This document shows, piece after piece, positions 18,102-55,153 of a stretch of DNA of 64,000 bases. A program made the position numbers and the translations under genes. The notes below the pieces were generated by a model. That model did no database searches and was not told the origin of the DNA. It saw only the letters and a list, made by a program, of their open reading frames with translations. Each line of letters opens with the position of its first letter. Position 1 is the first letter of the stretch. The DNA comes from Candidatus Bathyarchaeota archaeon (lineage in GTDB: Archaea > Thermoproteota > Bathyarchaeia > Bathyarchaeales > Bathycorpusculaceae): the NCBI GenBank assembly GCA_963815095.1, contig CAWFFH010000003.1:480001-544000 (forward strand). Reading direction: 5' to 3'.

Positions 18102-18734
18102 GTGATTTTGGTGAATTTTATGGAAAAAATAAAATCTTTTACTCTACCCAAATTGCCCTATGATTACAATGCGCTTGCACCGTATATTTCAGAGGAACAA
18201 CTAAAACTCCACCATGACAAACATCATCAGGCCTATGTAACCGGCGCCAACGCTATCTTTGAAAAAATCGACAAAGCACATCAAGAGAATGTTGCATTAG
18301 ACACCAAAGCAGTTGCAAAAGAATTATCCTTCCACATTGGCGGTCATATGTTGCACACGACTTTTTGGGAGAACATGGCTCCAGCAGGCAAAGGCGGCGG
18401 AGGACAACCAGGCGGAGCAGTTGCAGATATGATTAACATGGGTTTTGGAAGCTTTGATCACTTTAAAAAGCAGTTCTCAATGGCTGCTAATAGTGTTGAA
18501 GGTTCGGGATGGGCAACATTAGTCGCGCACCCGTGCATTGGACGGCCTCTAATCATGCAGATTGAAAAACACAATGTGAACGTTTTCCCTAATTTCCAAA
18601 TTTTGATGGCATTGGACGTTTGGGAACACGCCTACTATGTTGATTACAAGAACGACCGCGCCAAATTCGTGGAAGCTTTCTGGAACCTTGTAAACTGGGA
18701 CAAAGTCAACAAAAACCTTAGCCTTGTAAAGTAA
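18102..18734 (+). CDS. sod: Fe/Mn superoxide dismutase
   Basis: [18 protein letters not shown]. Confidence 0.97.
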
Positions 18735-18797
18735 GCTTTTGCTTACTTTTTCTTTGTTTTGTTTTATAAAAAAATTAAAGCGCTTAAGAAAGCGCGC

Positions 18798-19115
18798 TTA
18801 TGGCTGTGGAGTAATTTTTATGGCTGCGGCAGGACACTGCATCTCACAGGCTAAGCATTGTATGCAGTCTTTTTCGCGTGCAGGGTCAGATTTGCGTTCA
18901 GATAGTGGGTGTCCAGGCGAATCAGCCCAATCATAGAGAGATACGGGGCAAACGTCGATGCATACGCCGTCTCCGACGCAGCTATCCCAGTCTACCGCGC
19001 TGGTTGTTCCATGGATTCCAAGTTTTTGTGGGGCTTCAACTGGTCCCCAGACTTTGTGACCATTATGTTCACTTACAACTTGTCGTTTGGTTTGAAAATC
19101 AGGGTCTATTGGCAA
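18798..19115 (-). CDS. zinc-containing-type ferredoxin
   Basis: N-terminal extension PIDPDF..HNGHKVWGP..LGIHG; CVGDGVC and CIQCLACEMQCP; TTG start inferred. Confidence 0.88.
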   Translation of the reverse strand: MPIDPDFQTKRQVVSEHNGHKVWGPVEAPQKLGIHGTTSAVDWDSCVGDGVCIDVCPVSLYDWADSPGHPLSERKSDPAREKDCIQCLACEMQCPAAAIKITPQP

Positions 19116-19209
19116 AAAATTCACCGTACTAACGTGAGGAAACCGCAAATATTAGGGTTTCTACCTGAATCAATCCGCAAAGCATTTTGGGGTAGCCGCG
19201 TATCATTGT

Positions 19210-19998
19210 TTGATTTGTATGAGTCAATATTACCTGCCCATTGGCATGAGATATGCGACTTTGGAGGAAAGAAAACAATTCTACGCCCAAGAATTCAACC
19301 TTAGTAAAGTATCCGAATGGTTCACTGGAGGCCTTGGCAACACAAAGTTTGCGGTAATTATAGGCAGACATACAAAAATTTTCCCCGAAAAATACAAAGA
19401 CGACGCTTCAACCACCATAATAGTTGATGATTTTAAGAATCTGGAAGATGTACGCGAGCAAATCCTTGAGTTTTTGCCCGAAGCCGTCTACTACGACCGA
19501 AACAACTACGACAAAAAGGGCAACAAAACTGGACAGGAGCTAGCTTTTGACCTTGACCCCGAAAACATCACTTGCCCCATCCATGGGAGTTTGGCAGATA
19601 AAATGAAGCATCATCAGGGATTGAGCTTTTGCGAAGTTGAACTTGACATGATTAAGAAGGAGGCAATTGGTCTCTTCGATTTTTTGGGGCGCCGTTTTTC
19701 TGATTTGCGGGTTGTTTATTCGGGGAGAGGTTTTCATTTGCACGTTTTAGACCCAGAAGCCTACTTGCTAAGTACTGAAGAGCGATTGACCCTTGCGCGG
19801 CAGGTAAAAGCTTATGGCTTCCATATTGATGAATGGGTGACTTCAGGCGAATTCCGGTTGATACGACTTCCCCACAGCCTAAACGGTTTAGTTTCAAGAA
19901 TCGCGTTACAATTGAAAAAAGATGAAGTAGAAAGTTTTGACCCCGTTCACGATGAGCGGTGTCTGCCAAAGTTTTTGGTTAAAGAAGCTACTTCTTAA
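19210..19998 (+). CDS. archaeo-eukaryotic primase small subunit-like protein
   Basis: ELAFDLD, YSGRGFH, ID..VT, RLIRLPHSL. Confidence 0.85.
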   Translation: MICMSQYYLPIGMRYATLEERKQFYAQEFNLSKVSEWFTGGLGNTKFAVIIGRHTKIFPEKYKDDASTTIIVDDFKNLEDVREQILEFLPEAVYYDRNNYDKKGNKTGQELAFDLDPENITCPIHGSLADKMKHHQGLSFCEVELDMIKKEAIGLFDFLGRRFSDLRVVYSGRGFHLHVLDPEAYLLSTEERLTLARQVKAYGFHIDEWVTSGEFRLIRLPHSLNGLVSRIALQLKKDEVESFDPVHDERCLPKFLVKEATS

Positions 19999-20080
19999 CT
20001 GCTTTAGCTTTTTTTTCAGCCTTACTATAATATGCTGCTTTTTTCTTTTCTTCTTCCGCGGATTTAGGTTTTTTTGACAA
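19988..20080 (-). CDS. putative 30-aa lysine-rich microprotein
   Basis: TTG start after a GTGAGGT Shine-Dalgarno; MSKKPKSAEEEKKKAAYYSKAEKKAKAVKK*. Confidence 0.45.
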   Translation of the reverse strand: MSKKPKSAEEEKKKAAYYSKAEKKAKAVKK

Positions 20081-31064: not shown

Positions 31065-31081
31065 TGGCGGGCCCGCTGGGA
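31065..31081 (-). mobile_element. tRNA 3'-end remnant (att-like), Lys/Arg-type acceptor
   Basis: Minus strand reads TCCCAGCGGGCCCGCCA; GC-rich in an AT-rich context and lies at the core/accessory transition. Confidence 0.6.
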
Positions 31082-41220: not shown

Positions 41221-42543
41221 GTGCTACAGTCAGGCCTTTTAAAGGATAATACTTCTGCCGTCAACGAAATAGGCGATTATGCGGTATCAAAAGGATTACA
41301 CTTTGCGGCTTACTTTGACGCTTCAGGTCACGTCCAAAATGCAATGTGGATAGGAACTGCCAAGCAACAATGGGGAGACATGTTCGTGGGCGTCTATTTG
41401 GGCGATGAACCTGGAGGCAAAATGCTTGATGGCTCCGCTACTTTCACTCTCCAAGGAATAACAGTGAATAAATCGAATGATGGCATCGTAAGTTACGATG
41501 ACGGCAATGGGTGTTTAACAGCATTTTTTCCAGACGGCAAAATTACAGTACAGAAAAGCAATGATGGCTTTTCGTCAGAGCTTGACCCTAACAATTCTTC
41601 TATAACGATATCTAACACGCTAAGTAACACCAACTTGACCACTTATGAGCCAAACGGCTCAATAACAGTAAGGGAAACAATCACAAGTACAACAAATAAA
41701 GTATACACAGGCGGTTTACCTTATGGCCACTATGATGCAGGGGACTCTTATCAAGTACTGAGAAATAATTTCTATACAATGGAAAATGGCTCAGACCGTA
41801 TTGCTCAAGAAGAAACTTATCAGCAAGTAAAGAGCACAAACCCAATACCTAACGGCGATACCGCAGCAAATCTCTTTATAGCCAAAACCAAAGGACCCAT
41901 AGATAACTTGAGAAATCAATATAAAATAAGCAAAGGGGATTTTCCAATTTTTACGTCTGATTATGGTCTTTACTGGTGGGATTACAAGAGCGGATACGAC
42001 GTGGTTCTTGCGCAGTTAGGTTGGAACAATTCGGTTGCCCAAGAAATCGCCTTAGTGCGCGGCGCTGCAAATCTGCAGGGCAAAAGCTGGGGAACTATCT
42101 TGACATGGAAATACACCCAAGCCCCATATCTTGCGGATGGAAACGAAATTTTTAACCAAATGAAAACCTCCTACGAAAACGGAGCCCAATACGTCATACT
42201 ATTCAACTATGCAGATGGCATGTCAGGACCATACGGAACCCTACAAGAGGAACATTTCCAGGCATTAGAACGCTTTTGGAATGAAGTAGTCCACAACCCC
42301 ACTGTAATCCATGGTGGCGTTAAAGCTCAAGCAGCGCTGGTTTTGCCAGAAAATTACGGATGGGGCATGCGAAACCCAAACGATACTATTTGGGGCATAT
42401 GGAATGCAAACGGTACTTCACAGCAAATCTGGAACCAGGTACAAAGCAAGCTTACCCAATATGGCTCAAAATTGGATATAGTCTATGATGACCCAGCATA
42501 TCCTATCACAGGAAAATATGGCGAAACATACTATTGGAAATAA
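41221..42543 (+). CDS. 5'-truncated paralog of 60427-62031 (possible glycoside-hydrolase-like barrel)
   Basis: DEPGG, FTSDYGLYW, RGAA, YGWGMR shared with 60427; lacks the N-terminal anchor. Confidence 0.65.
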   Translation: MLQSGLLKDNTSAVNEIGDYAVSKGLHFAAYFDASGHVQNAMWIGTAKQQWGDMFVGVYLGDEPGGKMLDGSATFTLQGITVNKSNDGIVSYDDGNGCLTAFFPDGKITVQKSNDGFSSELDPNNSSITISNTLSNTNLTTYEPNGSITVRETITSTTNKVYTGGLPYGHYDAGDSYQVLRNNFYTMENGSDRIAQEETYQQVKSTNPIPNGDTAANLFIAKTKGPIDNLRNQYKISKGDFPIFTSDYGLYWWDYKSGYDVVLAQLGWNNSVAQEIALVRGAANLQGKSWGTILTWKYTQAPYLADGNEIFNQMKTSYENGAQYVILFNYADGMSGPYGTLQEEHFQALERFWNEVVHNPTVIHGGVKAQAALVLPENYGWGMRNPNDTIWGIWNANGTSQQIWNQVQSKLTQYGSKLDIVYDDPAYPITGKYGETYYWK

Positions 42544-43673: not shown

Positions 43674-43773
43674 CAGGTGGCTTATTAGAGATTTGCTTGC
43701 GTTTGTCATAATGGTTGCTACGCACAAGTTGTTAATACCTAAACTCTATCTTAACAGTTGCTTGGGTTAAGTT

Positions 43774-44067
43774 ATGAGGCGCTCCAAACTAGAAATGTAC
43801 GTTGACATTCTCAAGGTGATAGCACAAAAAGGACCGCTAAAGTTGACGCATGTTATGTATAAGTCAAATGTTAACTGCAGCGTTTTAAAGGAATATTTGG
43901 ATTTTCTAATCAAACAAGGACTAATTGAGGAAAGAACCGTTGGAAAAAGCAGAGTGGTTTATGCAAATACTGCTCGCGGAACAGCAGTTCTTAAAGGCTT
44001 CAGAGAACTGAACAAAGCGCTCCCCATAAAAGAAGAAGACCACAAAATCCCGCCAGAGCTATACTAA
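43774..44067 (+). CDS. archaeal winged-helix transcription regulator
   Basis: MRRSKLEMYVDIL...THVMYKSNVN...TARG. Confidence 0.85.
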   Translation: MRRSKLEMYVDILKVIAQKGPLKLTHVMYKSNVNCSVLKEYLDFLIKQGLIEERTVGKSRVVYANTARGTAVLKGFRELNKALPIKEEDHKIPPELY

Positions 44068-44542
44068 AGAAATCAGGTCAATTTTCACCTATGCTCTCAC
44101 TATGCAACTAAAAGACTATCCAGACAGTGCCACGCAAACTAAAGGCCACTTTCGATTGCCTTATCTTATCAAGTCCTGACGCCTCAAAGAAAGGGCAATC
44201 TTAGCATATTCCTCTAGAAAATTACCGGAATTGATGGATCAAAGAGAAGAGAAACAATTGTTAGTAAAATGTCAGACATCTGGCCCCTTTCCCGAACTTA
44301 CACATCGACGCTTAGCAAAAGTTTACCCAATCCTGAGAGGTGATCATATCGAATCATGACGGCATGTGCTGGGAATTTTTATGATCACCTACTGAAGAAT
44401 CAGATAGCATGTTCGGACCACTAATGGTCTGAGATCTTATCTCTGATATAACGAAATAAGACTATTTTCTTAAATTTTCATCACAGTTTGAAGCTGCCAA
44501 TTTGTCCCTTGCACTCTTTTCATAGTCGAGCTTTTCGATAAG

Positions 44543-44866
44543 CTATCTTTTGCGGGGATAGTCTGGTTTCGAATGACCCAATTTCTTCACCCATATTACT
44601 TCATTCTCAATTATCCAATAGTGTGATTGACACGGAAAACTCCAATTTCCAATAGATGGATCTAAAGTCACCGTTTCTCCATTCCATGTCAAACTCCAGT
44701 CTTTTGGTTTAATTGGTGTCACTACGATTTCGCCACAACCGCAAGGGCACCTATGGGTTGCCGTTGCGTAAAGTACGGAGATGTAGAGAATACCCTCCTC
44801 AACCTTTTCAGGAATATAGCGCACAAACTTAGGCGTGATCCGTTTTCGTTTCAATTGGCAAGTCAT
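44543..44866 (-). CDS. DUF6527-like Zn-binding protein of a Ubl-conjugation operon
   Basis: HRCPCGCG, LDPSIGNW, CQSHYWI; overlaps the stop of the E1 gene. Confidence 0.8.
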   Translation of the reverse strand: MTCQLKRKRITPKFVRYIPEKVEEGILYISVLYATATHRCPCGCGEIVVTPIKPKDWSLTWNGETVTLDPSIGNWSFPCQSHYWIIENEVIWVKKLGHSKPDYPRKR

Positions 44867-46022
44867 CGTTAATCAGCTCATTTGTGGGAATACTATAGAC
44901 CGTATGGTGCTCGTGTTCCAAATCTGCGTAAAATCCGCAGAGCTTCTTCCACTTAATGACGGCAAGAGCCGCATTTAACGCATTCATCTCCACAATCTGA
45001 ATATTACGAGAATAAACCTCGTCTTCTCCGTTAATGAAGTTGATTCTTCTCGCAACGTGTTCATGAAAGGATGGTGTGCAAGCAGTCACTCGAACTGCGC
45101 CACCTATCGCTTCATTCTGAACTAGACCCATTCCGACATCAATAAATGAAATATTTTTTTCTACAAGGTACTCGACAATAATCTTCTTTGCTTCTGGATT
45201 ATCAAGGCAAAGAAATACGAAGTCCATAGTCTCTAATTCTGAGACGTTCGTATCGTCAATGAATTGGAAATGAGGAATTATTTTCTTCCGCATTCGTGAG
45301 TAATTTTCAGCAAACCACTCCACCTTAGTTAGCTGCTTTCCTAAGTCTTCGCATGACGGTGCCCCTGGACTGCGGAAGGCATTGTGCTGAAGGAACCTGT
45401 CACCATCGAATAGATGAATCTCATTGACCAATGTCTTTGCGACAAAATCAAGGATGTACGCGCCAGTTCCCCCCAGCCCAACAATCGCGATACGTGCTCT
45501 GAGTTTCTCGTTTATCGCTGTAGTGCCTGCATGGCTGGAAGCGTTATCCACGTAGCAAAAGACGGAATCCCCATCGATTGTCCGAATAACCGGGTGGGTT
45601 TGGGCGGTAGCGGTAGGGTCAATAACATGTGCTTCCGCCTCAAGAATCTTGATGTACCTGCTCATCTTTTCGTGATAATTGGCATAGCCTCCATCGGGTT
45701 TATGAGAGAACTGACAGGTAGTTTCAAGTCCTTCGCTGATTTTCAGCCGAAAATTCGGATCATTGACAAGTTTTACCATCTGTGAACCTTTGGAGTCACA
45801 TGGGTATTCTCCGACCCAATAGACGACATGATTGGATGGTTTGATAGTCTTGTCGCCAGCCAAATCTAGCGGGGATACCAACGTTCCATATGCAACTTGT
45901 TTCTTCGAGTTAACATATGGTACGTGTGCGACTAGAAGATGCCCGCTTAATACACTTACTTCGTAGCCTTCGTCTTGAAGTAGCTTTAGGTCATCATTAC
46001 GACTTATCAGTTGGAGTGACAT
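44829..46022 (-). CDS. E2-like (DUF6791-like) domain fused to a ThiF/E1 adenylyltransferase
   Basis: N-terminal VPYVN, HVVYW.GEYPC, FSHKP; C-terminal GLGGTG, FDGD, HNAFR, CLD, YSRNIQ. Confidence 0.88.
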   Translation of the reverse strand: MSLQLISRNDDLKLLQDEGYEVSVLSGHLLVAHVPYVNSKKQVAYGTLVSPLDLAGDKTIKPSNHVVYWVGEYPCDSKGSQMVKLVNDPNFRLKISEGLETTCQFSHKPDGGYANYHEKMSRYIKILEAEAHVIDPTATAQTHPVIRTIDGDSVFCYVDNASSHAGTTAINEKLRARIAIVGLGGTGAYILDFVAKTLVNEIHLFDGDRFLQHNAFRSPGAPSCEDLGKQLTKVEWFAENYSRMRKKIIPHFQFIDDTNVSELETMDFVFLCLDNPEAKKIIVEYLVEKNISFIDVGMGLVQNEAIGGAVRVTACTPSFHEHVARRINFINGEDEVYSRNIQIVEMNALNAALAVIKWKKLCGFYADLEHEHHTVYSIPTNELINDDLPIETKTDHA

Positions 46023-46245
46023 CGAATGCCATACCGCTCTTGACCTTTACGGTTTGTCCCTCTGCCAGAGTTCCCTTAGGGTTCTCCTTGGGACCCTTGG
46101 TATAGTCAACTGTGAATATCTCGTTTGGTTTTGGTGGGCGAGGGAATCCCAAATTGACAACCTGCACATAATTGATCGTTTCCTCGTCCCAAGGCTTTCG
46201 ACTACCATTAACAAAAATTTCGAATTTTTTATGTTCTTCAGGCAT
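45997..46245 (-). CDS. ubiquitin-like (multi-ubiquitin family beta-grasp) protein
   Basis: IFVNG, INYVQVV, VDY, G.L..G..VKVKSGMAFDV, C-terminus TDKS; ATG at 46245 after GGAG (the ORF track starts it at 46281). Confidence 0.85.
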   Translation of the reverse strand: MPEEHKKFEIFVNGSRKPWDEETINYVQVVNLGFPRPPKPNEIFTVDYTKGPKENPKGTLAEGQTVKVKSGMAFDVTPTDKS

Positions 46246-46672
46246 TGTACATTCTCCACTTGTTATAGGTTGTTGACTCATTGGTTAATGACAGAAATAA
46301 AGTTTATTGACTTATTCCCGTTACTTTTTAGGTATCACATTTTATTTGATTATCTTTTTTTTTATAATAAGCCTCTGGCAGCATCTCCAAGGGGTCTGAA
46401 TCTATCTGAAAGTGACAACATTACTTAGGGTCGATTGCCGTCTTTTTCCTTTTAAAGCATTAAGCAGGTTTTGGCGAAGAAATTTTTGATGACATTATAA
46501 TCGCATACATTTTTTACCTCAAATATCGAACAATCATAAGCCTAATCAGGTGCGCGATACCAAACGAAGTTTAATTCGATTTGTGGAGCGTTGATTTCGA
46601 TATTTGGCCGAGTAATAGCACAGTTTGTTTCAGTTTTTGGGCCTTCAACCAAAAAAGTCTTGAGAGCTTTTT

Positions 46673-46894
46673 CTAAATTTTTTTTACGCATTCTTTGCAG
46701 TATAACGACAACGCAAATACGTCTTCATTCATCCAGTTCTTAATAATTTTTCCATTGCCACCTACTAAATATGCTTCCTCAAACGAAAATTTCTTGCGAC
46801 AGTTTGCGCATGAAAAAACTAAACGCTGTTTCGAGTCACATTTTAAAGAACGCTGATATTTGATCTTCTTAGGGGTAATAACGATTTTCACCAA
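46673..46894 (-). CDS. small Zn-ribbon protein
   Basis: CANC...CKEC. Confidence 0.5.
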   Translation of the reverse strand: MVKIVITPKKIKYQRSLKCDSKQRLVFSCANCRKKFSFEEAYLVGGNGKIIKNWMNEDVFALSLYCKECVKKI

Positions 46895-47086
46895 AATAAA
46901 TCAACTCGAATGAGTTTGGCGCCATAACTCCTGAGCATTTCTGATTCTTGATTGATTCGGAAAGATATTTCGCTTTCCTTAAAAACCGAATGCCTCATGC
47001 AAACACATCTCATAGACCCTGCCTTAAAATAATCCTTTTGCGAAATCTTCCGCGTCGGAAACGAATATCATTCCCTAATTTCATTA

Positions 47087-47344
47087 TCAGTTACCTGTCC
47101 CGTTAGGAACAAATTCTAAAAAGCTTATAATTAAGTCAAATTGTCCAGCCCTTGCTCGAGTACGTGCTAAGGAAGTTATGGATCCTCCAGCTTTTCTTTC
47201 TACGTATAAGTCTGAACAAGTCCATCCTTCGCTCTGAATAAACCGTATGCACACTTGAAGTTGACTTGAAATAATTGATTTTTGATTGTTTGTCGAGAAA
47301 GCGCAAATGTAAATTGCTGCTCTATTCTGAATGGCAATAGCCAT
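47087..47344 (-). CDS. degenerate serine-resolvase-like catalytic domain
   Basis: RAAIY...Q...SQLQVC..F...GW...YVE...RAGQFDLII; no YxRxS motif. Confidence 0.55.
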   Translation of the reverse strand: MAIAIQNRAAIYICAFSTNNQKSIISSQLQVCIRFIQSEGWTCSDLYVERKAGGSITSLARTRARAGQFDLIISFLEFVPNGTGN

Positions 47345-47379
47345 ACCACTTTCACATTTGCTAGGGTTCCGAGAGTCAT

Positions 47380-47592
47380 CTACTTTTCGGCAACATACAT
47401 TTTTGCTCTTCCCACTATCCTCGAAATCTTCACTTTTCCACACTTTTCTAATCCAAATACATATTTTGAGATAGTGTTCCGATGCACGCCGGTTTTTGCG
47501 GCTATTTCTTCTATTGAGAAGTCTTTTGGATACTCTTTCCGAAGGAATTCCAAGACTATTTTTTCGATATCTTGGTTCATTTTGTTGTGCAC
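47380..47592 (-). CDS. small winged-helix DNA-binding protein
   Basis: SIEEIAAKTGVHRNTISKY...GRAKMY. Confidence 0.8.
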   Translation of the reverse strand: MHNKMNQDIEKIVLEFLRKEYPKDFSIEEIAAKTGVHRNTISKYVFGLEKCGKVKISRIVGRAKMYVAEK

Positions 47593-47679
47593 TGGTGAAC
47601 ATCGTTATCAAACAACGCTTATATAGTTGGTTGTTTATTAATGTTGTGCATTAACGCACAGCGTTAAAGGTGACGAAAA

Positions 47680-48084
47680 ATGGAGAAAAAACATATTGAG
47701 AACATGGCAAACAAGAAGACCGCCCAGATAATGAAAAAAGAAAATTATCAGCAAACAACTATGATATTAAATAAAAATGCTCAATTGGCAGCTATTTACG
47801 TTTCCGACGAAGCAAAAAAAGAAGTTAACATTTCGAAACAAGTAGAGGCATGTCAGAAGTTTCTTAGCGAAAAAGGGTTCAAATTTTCAGGGGATCTTTT
47901 TCTAAAAAAAGAAGGGACTGACCATATTGATGAACTTGTAAGGGCTCGAGCACGGTCGCGAAGATTTGATTACATGGTAAGTTACCTTTTATGCCCAGGC
48001 AAATCACCGGGATTTTTTATTGGAATGATCGTTTGTTGGAATGCCCAAAACTTCCTAATAAAGCCTATTCAAGCGTTAAGGTGA
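47680..48084 (+). CDS. second degenerate serine-resolvase-like domain
   Basis: AAIYVS...SKQVEACQKF...GF...RARSRRFDYMV. Confidence 0.5.
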   Translation: MEKKHIENMANKKTAQIMKKENYQQTTMILNKNAQLAAIYVSDEAKKEVNISKQVEACQKFLSEKGFKFSGDLFLKKEGTDHIDELVRARARSRRFDYMVSYLLCPGKSPGFFIGMIVCWNAQNFLIKPIQALR

Positions 48085-48167
48085 CGAAAAAATGGTTTGG
48101 AAAGAAACTAGTTTTTCTCTATTTAAAAGAAAACTGCAAAAATAAGTCATCAAAGGAGTAACTTATT

Positions 48168-49313
48168 ATGAATACAGTTTTAGCAAAATGTCCAATTTGT
48201 GGAAGCGAAACCTCCAACTTCAAGATAAACGAGGACAACTTGAGATTTCTCGAGCAACGTTTCCATGATAATAATCTCGACCAAGCAATTGTTCTTGCCA
48301 GCATCGCCTGGAACAACTTTCCGGGGTTGAGGCTTAACGCGGACAGCAGAACATTGATTAATGGTCTATTGAAAAGCGTTCAAGAACAAGTAGCCAACGC
48401 TCTAACGCCCCTAAACATGGTCACTAAGATGGTTTATCCGCTAAGCGAGAAATTAGAGGCGCTAATTGAAACCCTTCCTGAGGGGGTCAAAAAAGAGTTT
48501 TGCGAATTAAAAGTGCAACTAACCGAAAAATTAGAGTTAATACATGAAGCAGCCACCAGCGCTACTGAACCTGTCCAAAGAGATCTAAAAGAGCTAAACG
48601 ACACCATCAATCAACTGATCAACAAACCAGTTAGCAAGGGTCTTGTAAACGAAGAGACACTGAAGCTTAGTTGGCAAGAGGTTTTTGTTAAAGACCAGAC
48701 ATTTAAAAAAGGAGGACCCGGGCAGCCAGATCTTGTGATTATCCCCAGCATTCAACTCAATGGCAAATGTTTCGGTCAGAAAATTATAGTGGAACGAAAA
48801 GCGGGTAGACAAAAATATTGTGGGACACATTTGGCGGAAACCATTCAACACACGAAGGCTGAGGGTTCGACCTACGGAATACTAGTATACGACGCGCCTT
48901 CCAACCTTCTCGAGGTTCAGAAACCGTTTTACGTGTCTATGTCTCAAGGAGTTACCATCGCCATAACTGATATTGAATCTGGCGGTTGGAAAACCGCGCG
49001 ACAAATTTTTGAGGTGTTCCAATCGGTTTTGCCCAATGATGCTGCAGATAACGCAAGCAAAATAGACATTGGAAAGCTGCAAAGGGCCATAGACGAAATC
49101 GCTACCGTCAACCAACAAATTGAAACACTCCGAAAATGTAACAATTCTGCGCTTTCTAACTGCGAAAAGTCTAGGACCCTGATAAACAGATTGGAAGAAC
49201 TAATAGCGGCCTATCAGGAAAAACTTAGAGAACTGCTTTGCCCAAGCACTCCTCCTCCTCAGATCTGGTCATCAGAAAAACTAATTCAGGAAAATAAAAA
49301 CTCGCTAGTATAA
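48168..49313 (+). CDS. coiled-coil protein with PD-(D/E)xK nuclease domain (DUF2130/RmuC-like)
   Basis: CPIC, coiled coils, KG..E, PD, VERK. Confidence 0.6.
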   Translation: MNTVLAKCPICGSETSNFKINEDNLRFLEQRFHDNNLDQAIVLASIAWNNFPGLRLNADSRTLINGLLKSVQEQVANALTPLNMVTKMVYPLSEKLEALIETLPEGVKKEFCELKVQLTEKLELIHEAATSATEPVQRDLKELNDTINQLINKPVSKGLVNEETLKLSWQEVFVKDQTFKKGGPGQPDLVIIPSIQLNGKCFGQKIIVERKAGRQKYCGTHLAETIQHTKAEGSTYGILVYDAPSNLLEVQKPFYVSMSQGVTIAITDIESGGWKTARQIFEVFQSVLPNDAADNASKIDIGKLQRAIDEIATVNQQIETLRKCNNSALSNCEKSRTLINRLEELIAAYQEKLRELLCPSTPPPQIWSSEKLIQENKNSLV

Positions 49314-49370
49314 GATTAAGTATACAGTTCTTTCTTGCCCCTTTTTGAAAAAACTTTTTGAGGAATTTTT

Positions 49371-50558
49371 GTGGACAAAGCTTTCAAAGCAACAAAGAAC
49401 AGCCCCATCAGAAAGATAGGCGAAGATCCAAAACCAACTTCGCTAGGGTGCTCTGTAAGTGAAGCTTACCCACAAAGAAGGGGAAAGAGAGAGTTCAGCG
49501 AACGAGAAATGCGGGGGCTCGCGATTTTAGCAAAGGGCAGCATGATTAAGAGAAATGATGAAAACACGTACTTAGTACGATCATCAAACATGGAAAGATG
49601 GTACAAAGTATATTGGAATGGGAAACGGTGGGTCTGCGAATGTAAAGACCACGAAAAAAGACTTCAATCGTGTAAGCATGTATATGCTGTGCTTTTTCTA
49701 AACAGATTGCCCTACATTCTAATGGCGAATTTTCAATCCGGAGAGATCAGATGTCCAAAATGCAATTCAAACCGAATAATAAGAAAAGGACTAAGCCATC
49801 ACAAAGAATTTGCAGATCAGAGATATATGTGCAAGGAATGCAAGCATAAATTCGGTGATAAGGGTGAGAGTAAAGGTCTGAAAGGAAATCCTCTAGCAGT
49901 AATCGCGGTGGCAGACCTTTATTTCAAAGGATTAAGCCTCCGTGCGATAGAACACCACATGAACAGTATCTACTCATTACATGTTTCGTATCCAACGATA
50001 TTCCGATGGATAAGGCGCATCATAAAGAACATGAAAGCACTGGAGAAAGAACACAGTTTGCATGTTGGGAAAACGTGGCATGTGGACGAAACCCTGATAA
50101 AAATAAGAGGCAAGCTCGCTTATCTGTGGAATGCTTTGGATGCGGAAACAAAGATATTGCTGGCAAGCGAGGTAACTTTTGGAAGAACAAGCGAAGACGC
50201 TGAAATGGTAATACGCGAGGCATTAAGAAAAGCTCAGTCGGGACTTGGAGAAATTGAAATTGTGACAGACGGCTTGAAAAGTTACAATATCGCCTTATCA
50301 AAGGATTATGATTGCAAAATAAAGCATCTATCGAAGCCTAAATTTACCGACCCAACTAACAACAACTTAGTTGAACGAGTAAACGGAACTCTTAAAACGA
50401 GAATAAAAAACTTCCGAAGACTAGACAATCTGTCTTCTTCAGCCCAACTTCTCGATGGACTTCGATTATACTATAACTCCAAGCGTCCTCACTCAGCTCT
50501 CGGAGGGAAAACACCAATCGAAGCCAGCTCAGAGTTAAACAAAAGAGTCCAAAGTTGA
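49371..50558 (+). CDS. IS6-like DDE transposase with N-terminal SWIM and Zn-ribbon domains
   Basis: CECKD..CKH, CPKC/CKEC, WHVDET, TDG..SY, NN.VER.NG, YN..RPH.AL..KTP. Confidence 0.85.
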   Translation: MDKAFKATKNSPIRKIGEDPKPTSLGCSVSEAYPQRRGKREFSEREMRGLAILAKGSMIKRNDENTYLVRSSNMERWYKVYWNGKRWVCECKDHEKRLQSCKHVYAVLFLNRLPYILMANFQSGEIRCPKCNSNRIIRKGLSHHKEFADQRYMCKECKHKFGDKGESKGLKGNPLAVIAVADLYFKGLSLRAIEHHMNSIYSLHVSYPTIFRWIRRIIKNMKALEKEHSLHVGKTWHVDETLIKIRGKLAYLWNALDAETKILLASEVTFGRTSEDAEMVIREALRKAQSGLGEIEIVTDGLKSYNIALSKDYDCKIKHLSKPKFTDPTNNNLVERVNGTLKTRIKNFRRLDNLSSSAQLLDGLRLYYNSKRPHSALGGKTPIEASSELNKRVQS

Positions 50559-51356
50559 ATCTTTGGGCTTGGATCTTTTGCTTCGTTTTTTTGGGCTAAT
50601 ATTTTTCTTGTAATCAATTGCAAGTTTTATTAGAGGGAGCCAACTGTGTTTTCCATCGATTGATTTTTTGTTTAGCGCAACTTCTGCTGGTGTCATATCG
50701 CAAAGGCTTGGACTAGGGTTGACAAAATTATAATCAATTACTACACCCTTTATTATTAGCGGTGATTTTTCTTTACTGTGCAAGCTTTTCATTGCGTTAA
50801 ATCTAGCCCTAAATACGCCGTTATGCCCTTCAATCGCTTGGTTTTGTCCCATGTCACCTTCTCTTTTATTTACTGTGAGTTTTGTTTTGGGTCCACACGC
50901 ATCTTTAACCGCCTTATCATATACTGGCAGGCCATCGCATCTCACTTCAACAGGGGATTTTTTGGCCATTGCCACGGCATTTTTAAAAGCTATTTTTACT
51001 GTTTCAATTGTAACTGGATAGTCTATATTTATGCCAAGATCAAAACCAGTCTTTAGATCTCTAACCACCATTAATGCTAACTCATTCTTTCTAAGCTTAA
51101 AGAACATTTCATCCGTTTCCCATATGTCCCCGAACTGAAACTCAAAACCGTATTCACCTTTTTCAATATAATATGGTAGAGCTTCGTCTACTGCTCCTAC
51201 CCAGTACAATATTCGGCGGAGTATAGTTGCAGGAGAAATCGGAATTCCGTAGTGTGCCCTAAACAAGCGAGAAATCTTTCGTAGACACATTCCCGCATAA
51301 AAAAGATCAAGCAAATAAGCATACTGTTCTAAAGTCAACCGATAGCCCAATATCAA
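50535..51356 (-). CDS. second IS6-like DDE transposase/integrase
   Basis: HTH, WETDEM, CDGLPVY, NQAIEGHNG, YNFV.P...TPAE. Confidence 0.75.
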   Translation of the reverse strand: MILGYRLTLEQYAYLLDLFYAGMCLRKISRLFRAHYGIPISPATILRRILYWVGAVDEALPYYIEKGEYGFEFQFGDIWETDEMFFKLRKNELALMVVRDLKTGFDLGINIDYPVTIETVKIAFKNAVAMAKKSPVEVRCDGLPVYDKAVKDACGPKTKLTVNKREGDMGQNQAIEGHNGVFRARFNAMKSLHSKEKSPLIIKGVVIDYNFVNPSPSLCDMTPAEVALNKKSIDGKHSWLPLIKLAIDYKKNISPKKRSKRSKPKDSTLDSFV

Positions 51357-51555
51357 TTCCTCCCAAAAATTTTAGGTCCAATTATTGAAACAGTAACTTT
51401 CATAAAAGACAAGGACCAGCCCCTGAAACAATACCGTTGCTGGTTCTGTTTCAAATCACCAGCTTTTGCCGCTTGACTCACTACTGTTTCAAATGTGGAC
51501 TTACAATGGACTGTTTCAATGTGCTCAGTCGGATAAATTGAGCATTTCTTTTTTT

Positions 51556-52023
51556 TCAAAGTTTTTCGCTCGCTCCAAGTTTCGGTTCTAGATAGTCAAA
51601 AATTTTGTCGTCTTCCAGACCCCATTCACGGATGGTACTTTCGACTAGTTGCTGTATTTTCAATTTTTTACTCTCTTGCAGCATGAACGCCCAGACTTCC
51701 GAAGGTACTTTGTGAGACCACTCGATTTCCATCCAGAAAATAGCGGCCTCACCTTTATCCGGCTGGCAGTTGGTCCATTCCTCTTCGATTTCTTCAGCAG
51801 AGAAAAAAGCGGTTTTTTGCCCATGAAGAGTACGTTTTAGATTATCATAACAAATGATAAACTCACTTATGCCCGTCCAGTCTCTGAAGGCACCAGTTTC
51901 TTTAGAACCACACTTAGTAGCCAACAGTTTTCTAACTTCCACACATATGTCTGCAAACTTGTCAATGTCAGATTCTTTACCAAACAGCCAATTATCACAA
52001 CTACCCATTGTTTTACCACCCAT
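51556..52023 (-). CDS. hypothetical protein
   Basis: 155-aa ORF co-oriented with its neighbours. Confidence 0.55.
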   Translation of the reverse strand: MGGKTMGSCDNWLFGKESDIDKFADICVEVRKLLATKCGSKETGAFRDWTGISEFIICYDNLKRTLHGQKTAFFSAEEIEEEWTNCQPDKGEAAIFWMEIEWSHKVPSEVWAFMLQESKKLKIQQLVESTIREWGLEDDKIFDYLEPKLGASEKL

Positions 52024-52041
52024 AAACGATTTTACAATTTT

Positions 52042-52230
52042 TCATTTGTAACTTTGACCTCTACACAACCTAAGCCAAATCGGAACCCAAAGAAGAAATG
52101 TAGCCTTGTCAAGTGAATCATCCAAGGACAGAATCGTTTCCCTTAAGGCATTTCCAGGCGGCAAAGACTCGGAGACGAAAGTCTTTAACCTTCTAATGTT
52201 AACGTACTTGCTGCTTTGCAATTGTTGCAC
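52042..52230 (-). CDS. small hypothetical protein
   Basis: 62-aa ORF ending 18 nt before the next gene. Confidence 0.45.
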   Translation of the reverse strand: MQQLQSSKYVNIRRLKTFVSESLPPGNALRETILSLDDSLDKATFLLWVPIWLRLCRGQSYK

Positions 52231-52373
52231 CGCTAATCAAACGAGGCGGTATCATGGTTGTAAGGCTTTTGAGGACGTTTGGTATCCGAGAATTGCCCAT
52301 TGGTATTTTTTCGTAGTGCAAAAAGAGTTTGTACTGAAAGCTAAGTCTGAATATTGGAGACATTTTATTAATC

Positions 52374-54005
52374 GTGGCAATATTAGGATGCAATGACCCC
52401 AAAATGAAGACGCTGACTAAAAGCAGGATTGCACATGACATACTGCGAACCTTTTTTACTGCAGATATGAAAAGACAACCGTTTGTTACCGACCGTGCTT
52501 TTAGAACTTTAAAGCACAACCGCAATGAAGTACACTATGTAAAGAATGATTTGCTAAAGGCTGGAATAATAGTAAGGCAAAAGCACGCGTATGTTTTGGG
52601 TGGAGGGAGCTTTGAGCGACGAGACAAGATACTCGAATACCTTGATTTTGTCAGAAGTGGGGATCCAATTCGTATTCAAATCGGAACCTATAACTTGCGC
52701 AGAATCTTTAGCGCTGCCATTTATCCTGAACCGGGGAAATTTGAAGATTTTCTTGGAAATTCTAATTTGAAGGAGTTAATTCAAGGGCATGATGTTGTTG
52801 AGATAACACGCTCGGATGAAGTTTGGAAGCTATTTAATGAGGTCTTGAATGACTATAAGAAGTTCGATTGGCAACTACTTTGTTTGATAGATGTTATATT
52901 AAAAGCTGTAAGACTCGTCAACAAGAATGAGAACAAAGATTTTTGGAACAAGCGGTTCGATGACAGAACATTGGGTGAGGGACTTATTCTTAATGTTAAA
53001 AAAGCCATTTTTGACATTATCTGTTCTGAAATATACGCCGAAACATATTCTAAAACGCATTCGATATATGAAAAAATTGTCATAAAACTTGTGCTAACAA
53101 TCAGAGAAGTAGATATGCAAAATGCCGCTCTTGTCAGTACCATCAAAGGGCTCTTTAGTTTGCCTCAGAAAAGCACTAACTTTTCAAGATTGGACCTGTC
53201 TGCTGCTGAATTCGACCGAGCTCCAGAGCAGCACGGGATTCCAGATATCTGGCACACACAAGGAGCCTACAGCGATTTATTTAAGGTAATTTATCGAATA
53301 CTTGAAAACTTAGAAAGTGTATCTATCCGGGACTTGCTGGAAGACTGGTTAACTGAAAAAGACACGAACCTCAAGTTTACCGCTCAGATTTTCTATTATT
53401 TTTTAATCAAAGATAGACTGTTAAAGAAAGCCGCTTGGTCAAATGATGACCAAAAAATTTACAATAACACGTTGGACTATAACATTCAACTTAAGCATAG
53501 CCAAGACCTTGTAAAAGGAATTCTTGCAATCAATGAATTTCTTCCACAATTTACACCTCAAAATGACTTCTACAAAGGTAATTTGCTTAGAGGAATAGGA
53601 AAGAGACAAAAATTACAAGCCGATCCTGAGATGTGGCCATTCGTTTTGCAACATCTCGGCGTCGATTATCCCCATATTATTGAGCTTTTCAAAAGATGCA
53701 AATGCCTTTTAGACAAAATCCAATATCTTGAAACCCAGGATGAACGAATAGAATGGGAAAGGATAACGAAGGAGGCTCTTGAAGACAAGTCAGAGCGTCT
53801 TAATAGCGTTCCAGAAGTAAAAGAGACAAATAGTACTGAAGAAGCTGAAGCGACTCTATCTTTGACTGAAGTGGAAAGGTTCGAGCTAGAAGAAGAGACA
53901 TCAAATACTAGATTCGAACTTGAAAATCAACTAAAAAATTTAATGCGGAATGTTAGGAACGGTGAATTAATCAAAGGCAAATGTGATCTATGTCAAAAGC
54001 ATTAA
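52374..54005 (+). CDS. large helical hypothetical protein (possible N-terminal wHTH, C-terminal CxxC)
   Basis: 543-aa ORF; ends GKCDLC. Confidence 0.65.
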   Translation: MAILGCNDPKMKTLTKSRIAHDILRTFFTADMKRQPFVTDRAFRTLKHNRNEVHYVKNDLLKAGIIVRQKHAYVLGGGSFERRDKILEYLDFVRSGDPIRIQIGTYNLRRIFSAAIYPEPGKFEDFLGNSNLKELIQGHDVVEITRSDEVWKLFNEVLNDYKKFDWQLLCLIDVILKAVRLVNKNENKDFWNKRFDDRTLGEGLILNVKKAIFDIICSEIYAETYSKTHSIYEKIVIKLVLTIREVDMQNAALVSTIKGLFSLPQKSTNFSRLDLSAAEFDRAPEQHGIPDIWHTQGAYSDLFKVIYRILENLESVSIRDLLEDWLTEKDTNLKFTAQIFYYFLIKDRLLKKAAWSNDDQKIYNNTLDYNIQLKHSQDLVKGILAINEFLPQFTPQNDFYKGNLLRGIGKRQKLQADPEMWPFVLQHLGVDYPHIIELFKRCKCLLDKIQYLETQDERIEWERITKEALEDKSERLNSVPEVKETNSTEEAEATLSLTEVERFELEEETSNTRFELENQLKNLMRNVRNGELIKGKCDLCQKH

Positions 54006-54192
54006 CATAGAAAATTCGTGCCTTAAATGAGACGCAAAAATTTCCATCCTATTTATCAATTGTTAATTGTGTGTATGTTTTGCAGATAAATGCTATTCAG
54101 GGATTTTTTACACAATTGGCGTTGAATACAGCTTAAAAGATTCTTTTGGGGTCATTAAACATTGGGTGACGAAAATGAAGCACAAAAAATGC

Positions 54193-54975
54193 CTATTTCC
54201 TCGCAAAGGCAACTGCCAAAGAGTCGCTCTTAACAAGGCTTGCAGTCTTCAAAAATCCTATCCGTTGGTTAGCCTTTTCCACTTTTGGCGCATATCTATC
54301 TCTATAGCGGCAAATTCTTTCAACCGCATATCGTTTGGTATCTTCATCTTTAGCTAATGCTCGATCCCATAGGCTCATTTCCTCCTCTGGCTTTGCGAGA
54401 TTTTCGGGCGAAATAAGAAAGAAAAAATCAGCGAAGCTTTCCAGCGTCATCTTTTCCATCTCCTGCTTTGTCATTTTTTTGAAACCAAAACCAGCAAGCT
54501 TATCGATTAGGTCTTGCTCTGATCTTTGATATTGTCCAGTGTTAAAGTTGAGGAACATTCGGATTGTTTTTACCGCTATTTCCCTGTTGGCGAAATAGGG
54601 CGAGAATATGATGGGAAGCAGCTTTTTACCTTGGTTGGATACTATTTTGTCAATTCTATCTTTTAAAGCATAGTCAGCCAATTCTTCCAAAAAAACGCCA
54701 TCTAAAACACGAAGCAATCCCCACAAAGTCAACTCTATGAACTGCCCTTCCTGACCAACTTGAGACGCCTCAACTTTTATGAAGCCATCCTTTAAAAGCC
54801 TCTCCAAAGAACGTTTGACTCCCTGAACTGATATTTCACGAGCGGATTTTCCAGACTGCGAAGCTACTCTGCCCCTTAGCCTCTCAAAGTCGCTGAGACA
54901 ACAACCATTCAACTCGCCCGCAACTGCTAAAAGCAAGTCGTCATCATTGACTAATCGATTACCCATGGACAACAC
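54193..54975 (-). CDS. hypothetical protein with N-terminal wHTH-like region
   Basis: VKRSLERLLKDGFI...ELTLWGL. Confidence 0.6.
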   Translation of the reverse strand: MLSMGNRLVNDDDLLLAVAGELNGCCLSDFERLRGRVASQSGKSAREISVQGVKRSLERLLKDGFIKVEASQVGQEGQFIELTLWGLLRVLDGVFLEELADYALKDRIDKIVSNQGKKLLPIIFSPYFANREIAVKTIRMFLNFNTGQYQRSEQDLIDKLAGFGFKKMTKQEMEKMTLESFADFFFLISPENLAKPEEEMSLWDRALAKDEDTKRYAVERICRYRDRYAPKVEKANQRIGFLKTASLVKSDSLAVAFARK

Positions 54976-55153
54976 CTCATTTCTGATATTTTGTAATTGC
55001 AGCTATCCTCATTTTTACCTTTAAGCTTTTTTGCCAGTAAAGTAGCGACCGCTACAGCATTTCCTTTTCAGGGTTCTGTCAAGTTGTCGGTTGAGAAGGG
55101 GTCGTGTAAACTTTCGGTTGATTTGCGAAGAGACAAAAAGAAAAGGTGGTGGT

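Follow-up and report, generated by a model that had tools for sequence, protein, structure and literature searches.

Can a ubiquitin-like cascade that runs on oxyesters, a chemistry described from bacteria, belong to the genome of an archaeon, and if so, how is it carried and what might it serve? The question is raised by three overlapping genes in a stretch of 64,000 nt (the window, positions 480,001 to 544,000 of contig CAWFFH010000003.1 in assembly GCA_963815095.1) assigned to a Candidatus Bathyarchaeota archaeon. The Bub pathways were defined late in 2024, as bacterial, and are the only known ubiquitin-like cascades built on Tyr/Ser oxyesters rather than Cys thioesters. The main text of the defining papers, supplementary tables aside, makes no mention of archaeal examples. 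The Type II Bub operon (formerly 6E.2) was described as BubA-BubBD-BubE, with one to three Multi_ubiq-type beta-grasp domains in BubA (Ye et al., bioRxiv 10.1101/2024.11.21.623953).

The three ORFs lie on the minus strand where a sequence-only reading of this DNA had placed them. bubA (45997-46281, 94 aa, ending in TDKS) is the first gene and shares 26 nt (45997-46022) with bubBD (44829-46022, 397 aa), which in turn shares 38 nt (44829-44866) with bubE (44543-44866, 107 aa). The reading had claimed a Bub-like set of co-oriented genes encoding a ubiquitin-like protein (Ubl), an E2-E1 fusion and a third protein, and had named four families for HMM searches, all of which were matched in Pfam: Multi_ubiq in BubA (E 9.3e-16, 58.2 bits against a cut-off of 24.5), DUF6791 at residues 10-159 of BubBD (E 7.8e-54), ThiF at residues 174-298 of BubBD (E 1.2e-14) and DUF6527 in BubE (E 3.6e-25). 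The entire 397-aa BubBD is furthermore covered by NCBIfam NF004805 (PRK06153.1-4) with 540.6 bits against a cut-off of 352. A motif scan recovered FSHKP (105) and YSRNIQ (337) in BubBD and CPCGC (40), PSIG (70) and CQSH (79) in BubE, and found no CxxC motif in any of the three proteins, as the reading had noted for the E1. No JAB/MPN domain was detected by Pfam among 33 neighbouring ORFs; the sole Prok-JAB match in the genome lies on a contig (C4) other than that of the operon. The order BubA-BubBD-BubE was found in all 16 non-self loci compared and in three of three further loci from the same genus, while in a sample of Pseudomonadota BubE was present at 7/7 loci and BubA at 6/7. At the level of sequence, the Type II Bub gene set (Ubl, E2-E1 fusion and DUF6527, without JAB) as defined by Ye et al. 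is thus confirmed.

BubA is a single beta-grasp ubiquitin-like domain, which aligns with beta-grasp domain 3 of the solved E. coli BubA (PDB 9cd2) with E 4.2e-12. Since its nearest homologues begin there, the protein may start at Met13 (46245), giving 82 aa. The absence of Gly-Gly from the TDKS end had been taken as a non-canonical trait. The observation stands, whereas the peculiarity does not: the terminal serine (Ser94) is invariant in 19/19 aligned sequences and 9cd2 also ends in TDKS, so that a non-Gly C-terminus is the norm for Type II Bub.

BubBD consists of an E2-like, BubB-type domain (DUF6791; 45582-46022, minus strand, approximately residues 1-147, with Ser106, His65, Lys108 and Cys75) and a ThiF-type E1 adenylation domain (44829-45530, minus strand, approximately residues 165-397, with the loop G182-G187, Asp206, Arg217 and Tyr337). 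Ser106, Arg217, Tyr337 and His65 are invariant in 130/130 homologues and Lys108 is kept in 128/130; among 120 listed homologues, archaeal names stand only on P0033 and P0080, the other 118 carrying no taxonomy. In a separate alignment of the E2-like domain, H65, C75, F105, S106, K108 and K119 were invariant in 18/18. In E. coli BubBD, R219A, Y342F and S106A were each reported to abolish BubA-BubA conjugation (bioRxiv 10.1101/2024.11.21.623953). Ser106, Arg217 and Tyr337 probably correspond to E. coli S106, R219 and Y342, a match read from their invariance and near-identical numbering rather than from a direct alignment; when the complete E. coli genomes were all searched by distant blastn with bubBD of Photobacterium (L014), no match for the E. 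coli counterpart came back. Ser106 and Tyr337, which had been put forward as candidate Ubl carriers, keep that standing. The Lys and His partners of the E2 serine were identified from the text of the preprint, not from its figure (bioRxiv 10.1101/2024.11.21.623953). The E1 domain has no invariant Cys in the 130-homologue alignment. In the E2-like domain, Cys75 never varies in the smaller alignment and is kept in 128/130 of the larger one, and this invariance is left unexplained by a cysteine-free model.

Predicted structures place both domains close to those of Type I Bub from Citrobacter. The full-length model of BubBD reached a pLDDT of 83.8, with low confidence for loop 331-340, which holds Tyr337, and the best eight Foldseek matches of the E1 domain were all Citrobacter BubCD chains (top E 7.6e-13). 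For the E2-like domain (pLDDT 89.7), VIA-align gave Citrobacter BubB 9eav_D as best match (Z 9.6, rmsd 3.4 Å over 120 residues), followed by a row at Z 5.9 and then by UEV/UBC folds. Foldseek with this domain alone found no match at E <= 0.001 and ranked BubB fifth at E 0.29, so the E2-like fold that had been proposed for the N-terminal domain is supported through VIA-align. A BubBD homodimer was predicted with an ipSAE of 0.83 (0.86, 0.83 and 0.83 in three runs) against 0.00 for the best control, the runs having at least 96% of contacts in common and a partner pLDDT of at least 87. In the calibration of the tool the dimer mark was reached by 20/30 solved pairs and by 1/23 solved single chains. 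The score may simply mirror likeness, because dimers of BubCD and of other E1-like proteins have already been solved.

In BubE, a predicted zinc-binding serine peptidase, H38, C40, C42, C44, W57, S71, C79, S81 and H82 are invariant in 18/18 aligned sequences. The claim that the locus has no deubiquitinase was correct as regards JAB. It does not extend to DUF6527, for which the preprint describes a deconjugating serine peptidase whose S92A and H102A variants in Citrobacter each abolished cleavage (bioRxiv 10.1101/2024.11.21.623953). A hydrophobic or conserved terminal extension was also described for BubE (bioRxiv 10.1101/2024.11.21.623953). The conserved C-terminal tail is kept in 15/17 homologues, which measure 117-153 aa in 16/17 cases and 103 aa in the remaining one (L025), and it is degraded here and ended by an in-frame stop. 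With this tail gone from BubE, the system may be braked differently.

The operon had been described as lying next to a mobile block. It lies in fact inside one, an integrative element of 34,849 nt (31067-65915; in-window part 31067-64000) that ends 1.9 kb past the window end. Both ends of the element are marked by a 15-nt direct repeat, GCGGGCCCGCTGGGA, which is a putative att site; its left copy occupies 31067-31081, and its right copy (65901-65915, that is G000:C3:545901-545915) forms the 3' end of tRNA-Arg(CCG), which spans 65901-65977 in extended coordinates. Near-identity to the contig G467:C9, from a congeneric genome, starts at 31048, and near-identity with G467 and with a further genome, G410, breaks off no more than 20 nt from the repeats. 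The element is 99.6-100% identical to G467:C9, and positions 51442-65919 match G410:C6 at 99.99%, whereas the core DNA of the compared genomes (window 1-20000) is only 75-86% identical. Beyond the element end, the sequence of G410:C6 has no match in 124 kb of the present genome, so that contig shows no trace of a circular, excised form. Base composition does not mark the element, the GC being 0.37-0.44 inside and 0.39-0.43 in the 20 kb leftward.

At the right end of the element, beside tRNA-Arg(CCG), lies a 436-aa ORF, a putative tyrosine recombinase. It scores 0.99 in the ESM Atlas to archaeal clusters auto-named 'Tyr recombinase', in one of which 24% of members carry PF00589; this is a lead, and the ORF had no Pfam match at E <= 0.1 and no PHROGs match at E <= 0.001. 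The element also holds an IS240/IS6-type DDE transposase (49371-50558, plus strand; DDE_Tnp_IS240 3e-19, rve_3 3.8e-13) and a second, partial copy (50535-51356, minus strand; Pfam 4.5e-05). A sister element in the genome G472 shares 98.6% identity in its integrase and 95% in a backbone block, with a Bub allele of ~60% protein identity at another position. Judged from these sequences, the operon behaves as an exchangeable cassette. No cassette ends were found in 43700-47700, where the only two-copy matches (14-22 nt, 73-86%) are taken as chance. Among the flanking genes are those for a small HTH protein (HTH_45, 43774-44067), a zinc-ribbon protein (46673-46894) and a second small HTH protein (HTH_11/HTH_3, 47380-47592), the latter two upstream on the minus strand of the operon. 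Across 15 loci compared, no neighbour is conserved save in the related G472 element, and on this ground the three genes are argued to act autonomously.

The host is a genuine archaeon, since the 1.53-Mb contig of the operon also carries, ~360 kb away, an archaeal SSU rRNA gene (1486 bits). The operon is rare: 4/119 other genomes in the genus have it, as do 3/400 in the class and 3/400 in the phylum. Archaeal and bacterial BubBD sequences separate in the tree with UFBoot 100, and BubBD is 44-54% identical to the bacterial members of the 16 non-self loci and 37-47% to those of the Pseudomonadota sample. Horizontal acquisition, as the sequence-only reading had it, is strongly supported. A phylogeny against bacterial Bub had been called for, and the rarity in relatives agrees with acquisition, while the nearest kin of BubBD proved archaeal, not bacterial; a direct bacterial donor is therefore unlikely. 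Taken together, we assign a probability of roughly 0.87 to the reading that a 34.8-kb element, inserted in tRNA-Arg(CCG) of a Bathyarchaeia-type archaeon, bears a Type II Bub operon as cargo.

A working scheme may be drawn by analogy. What this locus itself shows is the gene set with its domains, the conserved residues, the likeness in fold, a predicted dimer, an archaeal host and a place within a mobile element; we infer all chemical steps of the scheme and the role of BubE from the E. coli and Citrobacter literature. First, the BubBD homodimer would bind BubA and ATP, and the ThiF-type site (G182-G187, D206, R217) would adenylate the carboxylate of the C-terminal Ser94. Second, Tyr337 on the flexible crossover loop would accept BubA as a tyrosyl oxyester. 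Third, the loop would deliver BubA to the E2-like domain, probably in the second protomer, and there to Ser106, whose reactivity His65 and Lys108 would raise. Fourth, BubA would be transferred to lysines of targets or of another BubA. Finally BubE, expected to be a beta-sandwich that zinc stabilises through Cys40/42/44/79, with Ser71 and His82 as its dyad, would strip BubA from its targets and so restrain the system. Metatranscriptome contigs offer a weak hint of transcription. A 276-nt contig at 45896-46171, across the bubA/bubBD overlap, and a 151-nt contig at 45413-45563, both given by X1 and X2, are 100% identical to the locus, and a 194-nt contig of a third run (X3) has three differences. 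These come from three runs of three studies and are all short; the records of X1 and X2 are identical, maybe one data set, and RNA libraries can hold DNA, so that the contigs prove no transcript.

As to purpose, our leading guess is that the operon defends against viruses or competing mobile elements, in which case BubA would tag the proteins of a virus or invader, and we put this, tentatively, at somewhat less than even odds. The patchy occurrence described above and the cassette-like exchange, with a different Bub allele in the related element of G472, suit such a role, and the related Bil systems are reported to tag phage proteins (bioRxiv 10.1101/2024.11.21.623953). Against it, the defining papers tested for protection from phage and saw it with none of the Bub operons (bioRxiv 10.1101/2024.11.21.623953; EMBO J 2026). 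In addition, PADLOC matched no known defence gene among 10 other element ORFs scanned, and consequently the element is no recognisable defence island; PHROGs families were likewise absent from 10 large element ORFs scanned. The label 'anti-virus' given by the sequence-only reading is not supported.

A second purpose, which we regard as possible yet doubtful, is a module for stress response or element maintenance that modifies proteins of the host or of the element without any link to viruses, for example by stabilising the element or regulating its excision. The authors of the defining papers leave 'antiphage immunity or stress response' open (bioRxiv 10.1101/2024.11.21.623953; EMBO J 2026). 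The operon moves with its element at ~100% identity across genomes, and the same-strand HTH and zinc-ribbon genes upstream would fit such a module, though neither belongs to a neighbourhood conserved over the 15 loci outside the related element of G472.

Decay of the cargo, with pseudogenisation setting in at the truncated tail of BubE and the regulated pathway lost, is improbable. Degradation is seen in the tail itself and elsewhere in the family: BubBD is split in two ORFs at three archaeal loci (L004, L015 and L019), the DUF6791 match is split in G605 and BubE is reduced to 103 aa in L025. Yet all three ORFs are intact across their catalytic cores and keep every invariant residue, and the copy in G467 is 100% identical, which makes the present copy too young to show decay; the RNA-library contigs identical to bubA and bubBD add the same weak hint as above.

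A sulfur-carrier or cofactor system (ThiS/MoaD-ThiF/MoeB or SAMP/UbaA), or a CBASS-type Cap2, in place of Bub is very improbable and already contradicted by the domain, NCBIfam and structural matches: the weak ThiF, MoeB and PADLOC 'E1-E2' matches that could speak for it (best 34.2 and 27.9 bits) are far under curated cut-offs (ThiF NF006395, 34.2 bits against 159; the SAMP-activating E1 UbaA NF047750, 13.6 against 450), the Gly-Gly terminus and CxxC motif are missing, those pathways make no use of an E2-like domain of this kind or of DUF6527, and no CD-NTase was found among the neighbours scanned. A bacterial contaminant or assembly chimera can hardly be credited either, for although the contamination of the genome is estimated at 4.2% and DNA identical in three bins could in principle mislead an assembler, the operon shares its contig with the archaeal 16S gene, the limits of the element are clean and coincide with the direct repeat of an archaeal tRNA gene, a second assembly (G467:C9) has the same operon and context between its own diverged archaeal flanks, the closest BubBD relatives are archaeal, and the operon GC of 0.43 lies within the 0.37-0.44 of its surroundings.

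What is new in the reading of a Type II Bub operon on an archaeal element is this operon as cargo of the 34.8-kb tRNA-Arg(CCG) element. An operon that is complete and has kept every catalytic residue, on an archaeal chromosome and in an archaeal branch of the family, widens the range of the chemistry. The locus gives a clean example of operon movement, with ~100% identity in the element against 75-86% in the core and a sister element bearing a different allele, and the single-domain, Ser-ending BubA and tail-less BubE are natural minimal forms for tests of mechanism. More speculatively, and with about as much doubt as attaches to the stress-response role, Bathyarchaeia, Nitrososphaeria and Thermoplasmata may share a monophyletic archaeal branch of Type II Bub, passed as three-gene cassettes by tRNA-integrating elements and acting against viruses or invaders. 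If true, it would be the first cysteine-free ubiquitin-like tagging in the domain thought ancestral to eukaryotic ubiquitination, and its minimal form, with one beta-grasp domain and a tail-less BubE, would suit biochemistry well.

Among known systems, the archaeal SAMP/UbaA pathway and the eukaryote-like Ub-E1-E2-RING operon of Caldiarchaeum likewise combine a ubiquitin-fold modifier with ThiF-family activation. SAMPs carry a Gly-Gly end and work without an E2, whereas BubA here ends in TDKS and an E2-like domain is present; the Caldiarchaeum Ub operon has a cysteine E1 and E2, a RING E3 and Rpn11. Bil (BilABCD) is also a mobile, patchy conjugation system with a Ubl, E1, E2 and peptidase, and its separate cysteine E1 and E2, JAB peptidase and demonstrated anti-phage function, as described in the literature, do not apply to this locus. 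Cap2 of Type II CBASS is, like BubBD, an E2-E1 fusion in one chain; the PADLOC 'E1-E2' models gave weak matches over the ThiF part of BubBD (best 2.5e-07, 27.9 bits), and the Cap2 structure 7to3 ranks 44 among the structural matches. Cap2 nevertheless has catalytic cysteines, acts on a CD-NTase rather than a Ubl and is accompanied by the JAB peptidase Cap3; no CBASS cyclase, effector or JAB was found among the neighbours scanned.

Type I Bub of Citrobacter (BubAB/BubCD/BubE; PDB 9ea4, 9ea5, 9ea8, 9eae and 9eav) stands nearest in structure for the E1 and the E2-like domain of BubBD alike, while the similarity in sequence is weak (phmmer E 0.0012, E1 domain only). By analogy, the oxyester logic, with Tyr on the E1 crossover loop and Ser in the E2, would be shared, and the DUF6527 peptidase is common to both. 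The Type I fusions are Ubl-E2 (BubAB) and JAB-E1 (BubCD), whereas here the Ubl is separate, the E2 and E1 are fused and JAB is absent; the Type I Ubl ends in Gly once processed, in place of TDKS, and its E2 serine is described as flanked by His and Asp, that of Type II by Lys and His (bioRxiv 10.1101/2024.11.21.623953).

The closest counterpart is the Type II Bub operon of E. coli ZDHYS365, from which the present locus differs in several respects. The host is archaeal and BubBD falls in a separate archaeal branch. [quoted passage not shown] The likeness is nonetheless extensive: the same three genes stand in the same order, with a DUF6791 and ThiF E2-E1 fusion, DUF6527 and no JAB in both; Ser106 is shared, Arg217 and Tyr337 here would correspond to 219 and 342 there, both BubA proteins end in TDKS, and in each case the operon is borne by a mobile element sited at a tRNA gene.

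Three co-oriented genes on the minus strand make up the operon: bubA (45997–46281) encodes a ubiquitin-like protein (Ubl) of 94 residues with the C-terminus TDKS, bubBD (44829–46022) a 397-residue fusion of an E2-like and an E1 domain, and bubE (44543–44866) a DUF6527 peptidase of 107 residues. The overlaps are 26 nt for bubA/bubBD and 38 nt for bubBD/bubE. Pfam matches were obtained for Multi_ubiq in BubA (9.3e-16), DUF6791 (7.8e-54, residues 10–159) and ThiF (1.2e-14, residues 174–298) in BubBD, and DUF6527 in BubE (3.6e-25), all four exceeding the curated cut-offs. The ORF list and these domains agree with the sequence-only reading, which had described three overlapping co-oriented genes and named the same four families; the motifs it quoted were placed at residues 105, 337, 40, 70 and 79. 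Its further claims, of an E1 devoid of CxxC and an operon devoid of a JAB deubiquitinase, also held: no CxxC motif was found in a scan of BubA, BubBD and BubE, and no JAB domain in a Pfam scan of 33 neighbouring ORFs. The single Prok-JAB match in the query genome lies on a different contig from the operon. NCBIfam model NF004805 (PRK06153.1-4, titled just 'hypothetical protein') covers the whole of BubBD at 540.6 bits versus a cut-off of 352, and the NCBIfam models of ThiF, MoeB and UbaA were rejected, as BubBD scores far under their cut-offs. PADLOC (2023), which holds no model for the small proteins BubA and BubE, gave weak Cap2-type 'E1-E2' matches to BubBD, confined to its ThiF part.

Structure prediction has been employed to place both halves of BubBD. 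The AlphaFold2 model built from a 47-row alignment has a mean pLDDT of 83.8, with low confidence in the inter-domain linker and in the loop 331–340 that carries Tyr337. In a Foldseek search of the PDB, the best eight matches are Citrobacter BubCD chains (best E 7.6e-13), followed by UBA5, MoeB, ThiF and MccB. The N-terminal 150 residues, modelled separately (pLDDT 89.7), found no Foldseek match at E ≤ 0.001. Exhaustive comparison with VIA-align placed Citrobacter BubB (9eav_D) on top with Z 9.6 and an rmsd of 3.4 Å over 120 of 128 residues; the runner-up scored 5.9, and the other rows shown were mostly UEV, UBC or RWD folds. Judged from the model, the N-terminal domain is a diverged E2 fold of the BubB type. 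A BubBD homodimer is supported by predicted complexes, which scored 0.86, 0.83 and 0.83 against 0.00 for the best control; they have ≥96% of their contacts in common, and the partner pLDDT is 87 or higher. Of 30 proteins whose structures were solved as pairs, 20 reach this mark, as does 1 of 23 solved as single chains. As E1-like dimers, BubCD among them, have already been solved, this score speaks for likeness and is not independent proof.

The gene order BubA-BubBD-BubE was found at all 16 non-self loci and at three of three further loci of the same genus. In the Pseudomonadota sample of seven loci, BubE was present in seven and BubA in six, little upstream DNA having been fetched for the seventh. 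In a comparison of 15 loci, the flanking genes showed no conservation, save in one related element. BubE ends in a tail motif, W..S.I..GR..D...K..Y, which is kept in bacteria and archaea alike. In the window the tail is degraded and cut by an in-frame stop (44543–44590 plus 80 nt downstream), and the read-through frame past this stop retains no more than a faint likeness to the full tail of the BubE at locus L008. Within the genus, BubE of locus L025 (genome G464) is short too, at 103 residues, and the tail at L023 has diverged. BubBD is split into two ORFs at three archaeal loci (L004, L015 and L019), and the DUF6791 match is split on contig G605:C342; such splits are due to frameshifts, decay or errors in sequencing.

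A bacterial contaminant is made very unlikely by a full archaeal SSU rRNA gene (1486 bits) on the same contig, of which the window covers 480001–544000; the host of the operon is an archaeon. The named relatives of BubBD are from Bathyarchaeia/Bathyarchaeota (68% and 56% identity), Nitrososphaerota (60%) and Nitrosopumilus (59%), with bacteria at 44–54%, and two database matches are titled Thermoplasmata archaeon and Nitrososphaerota archaeon. Twenty-nine rows, without unnamed matches and with four split genes entered as their largest piece, were put through a careful IQ-TREE analysis, in which one branch parts 13 archaeal from 16 bacterial BubBD sequences (UFBoot 100, SH-aLRT 99). The same split (SH-aLRT 99) appeared in a quick tree of 52 rows, and all 30 unnamed matches included there fell on the archaeal side. 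By sequence, then, the window operon belongs within the archaeal branch of BubBD. If these unrooted trees are given a midpoint root, this branch would nest among bacteria. Within the archaeal branch, BubBD from genomes of the window's genus falls in two or more separate places, which points to transfer among archaea. Among the bacterial rows, a Gammaproteobacteria MAG (L010) and an Ilumatobacteraceae MAG (L011) have near-identical BubBD, BubA and BubE, with tree branch lengths of 0.013 and 0.025; as the records name different bacterial phyla, such near-identity indicates either a transfer that happened very recently or a mistake in binning.

BubBD, traced by DUF6791, is a single copy in its own genome and was found in 5 of 120 genomes of the genus (4 of 119 without the query), in 4 of 401 sampled from the class and likewise from the phylum (3 of 400 without the query in each), and in none of 14 control genomes. 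As the bacterial phylum of locus L014 gave 9 of 401 (8 of 400 without the query), Bub is about equally sparse in these archaea and in that phylum.

An integrative element carries the Bub operon as cargo. From 31048 to 65915–65919, running past the window on the same contig, the DNA is 99.6–100% identical to contig G467:C9, with 28 of 33 one-kb bins at 100%, and from 51442 on it is 99.99% identical to G410:C6; the core DNA (1–20000), by contrast, is 75–86% identical to G467 and 78–79% to G410. Over 9,191 nt, a locus from a public genome collection (L007), counted with G467:C9 as one genome, shows 100% identity. Direct repeats of 15 nt, GCGGGCCCGCTGGGA, flank the shared block at 31067–31081 and 65901–65915, giving an element of 34,849 nt, and the right-hand one forms the 3′ end of a tRNA-Arg(CCG) gene on the minus strand (65901–65977). 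Adjoining this tRNA is a 436-aa ORF with no match in Pfam or PHROGs; in the ESM Atlas it scores 0.99 to archaeal clusters with the automatic names tyrosine recombinase or integrase, a lead that makes it a putative enzyme of this type. Within the element there are also two genes for IS240-type transposases and many ORFs of no family, and PADLOC recognised none of the 10 element ORFs submitted to it. On the left, synteny between G467 and the query genome returns once 12.8 kb of G467's own DNA have been passed, with 81% identity. This stretch (G467:C9:37304–50113), missing from the query genome, separates the element's left end from the syntenic radical-SAM gene; a second insertion at the same site may have put it there. 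For the sequence past the element's right end in G410 (G410:C6:14481–38493), no match was found within 124 kb of the query genome, and ARAGORN found no tRNA in G410:C6:1–32000 (L031 and L042); G410 may have the element at a different site, or this contig may be a chimera.

A sister element was found in genome G472 (G472:C17, 1–20000) and compared with window 44543–55056. It has an integrase of 98.6% identity and, over a 7.4-kb block (window 47676–55056), 95% identity, whereas its BubBD shares only ~60% protein identity with that of the window, and its operon follows the 7.4-kb block which the window's precedes. Because both the allele and the position differ, Bub behaves as an exchangeable cassette, and it looks like one that is swapped within a single element family. 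Upstream of bubA and on its strand (minus), the ORF 46673–46894 encodes 73 residues with two pairs of Cys and matches no Pfam family; a 57%-identical copy of it lies in the sister element, there apart from Bub. The divergent ORFs 47087–47611 (minus) and 47680–48084 (plus) gave no Pfam match; the first is 34% identical over 70 aa to the G472 counterpart of the second. They appear to be distant paralogues and, by eye, may resemble serine recombinases in their N-terminal part. Two other neighbours, the 3′ part (41948–42539) of a 440-aa ORF (41221–42543) and an HTH_45 winged-helix gene (43774–44067, matched over 43780–44038), are multi-copy families, with many matches at 64–89% identity in nearly every genome of the genus.

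The BubBD alignment has 130 sequences, of which 16 come from fetched loci and 114 are database matches of at least 385 aa. In it, Ser106, Arg217, Tyr337 and His65 are invariant and Lys108 is kept in 128; Ser106, His65 and Lys108 are invariant too in an alignment of 18 N-terminal domains that includes eight bacterial rows. In canonical E2 enzymes, the histidine of the HPN motif and the catalytic cysteine are spaced ten residues apart. Cys75 of the E2-like domain (45798–45800) lies 10 residues past His65 and is invariant in 18 of 18 N-terminal domains and in 128 of the 130 sequences. It is not discussed in the available text of the preprint that sets out the cysteine-free Bub model (bioRxiv 10.1101/2024.11.21.623953), with which it does not fit neatly.

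Bub operons were defined by Ye, Gong, Chambers and Corbett in that preprint, according to whose accessible text each of R219A, Y342F and S106A in E. coli ZDHYS365 BubBD abolished BubA-BubA conjugation. Matched by numbering and not by direct alignment, these positions correspond to 217, 337 and 106 in the window's BubBD, and the earlier proposal of Ser106 and Tyr337 as candidate Ubl carriers gains from this as well as from their invariance. His38, Cys40, Cys42, Cys44, Trp57, Ser71, Cys79, Ser81 and His82 of BubE are invariant in 18 of 18 sequences; for Citrobacter BubE, the same source reports cleavage abolished by S92A and by H102A and a zinc proposed to be held by four cysteines. We infer the conjugation chemistry of the window's Bub proteins by homology. 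As for function, no phage protection was found by the authors of the preprint, and a 2026 article of the same laboratory (PMC13373217), as far as its available text goes, regards protection as still undemonstrated and allows a general stress role. Cap regulators, companions of many bacterial Bub operons, were not recognised among the neighbouring ORFs scanned with Pfam, and the hint of expression consists of short identical contigs only, in metatranscriptome libraries. The literature on Bub operons, DUF6527, DUF6791, BubE and BubBD, in the text available, yielded no report of archaeal Bub, and supplementary operon tables may list archaeal entries; the first Bub paper uses the word 'archaea' in its main text only within a structural comparison, and in that of the second it has zero occurrences. 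Archaeal BubBD homologues are already in public databases under the title 'ThiF family adenylyltransferase'. The C-terminal serine of BubA is invariant in 19 of 19 sequences, inside a [T/S][D/N][K/R/Q]S motif, and the solved E. coli BubA (PDB 9cd2), which aligns to residues 18–94 of the window protein (4.2e-12), likewise ends in TDKS; as a rule, then, Type II operons encode a Ubl that lacks Gly-Gly. The three genes found here are exactly the set of a Type II Bub operon as defined by Ye et al. (bioRxiv 10.1101/2024.11.21.623953), and the operon is a new, archaeal member of this known kind.
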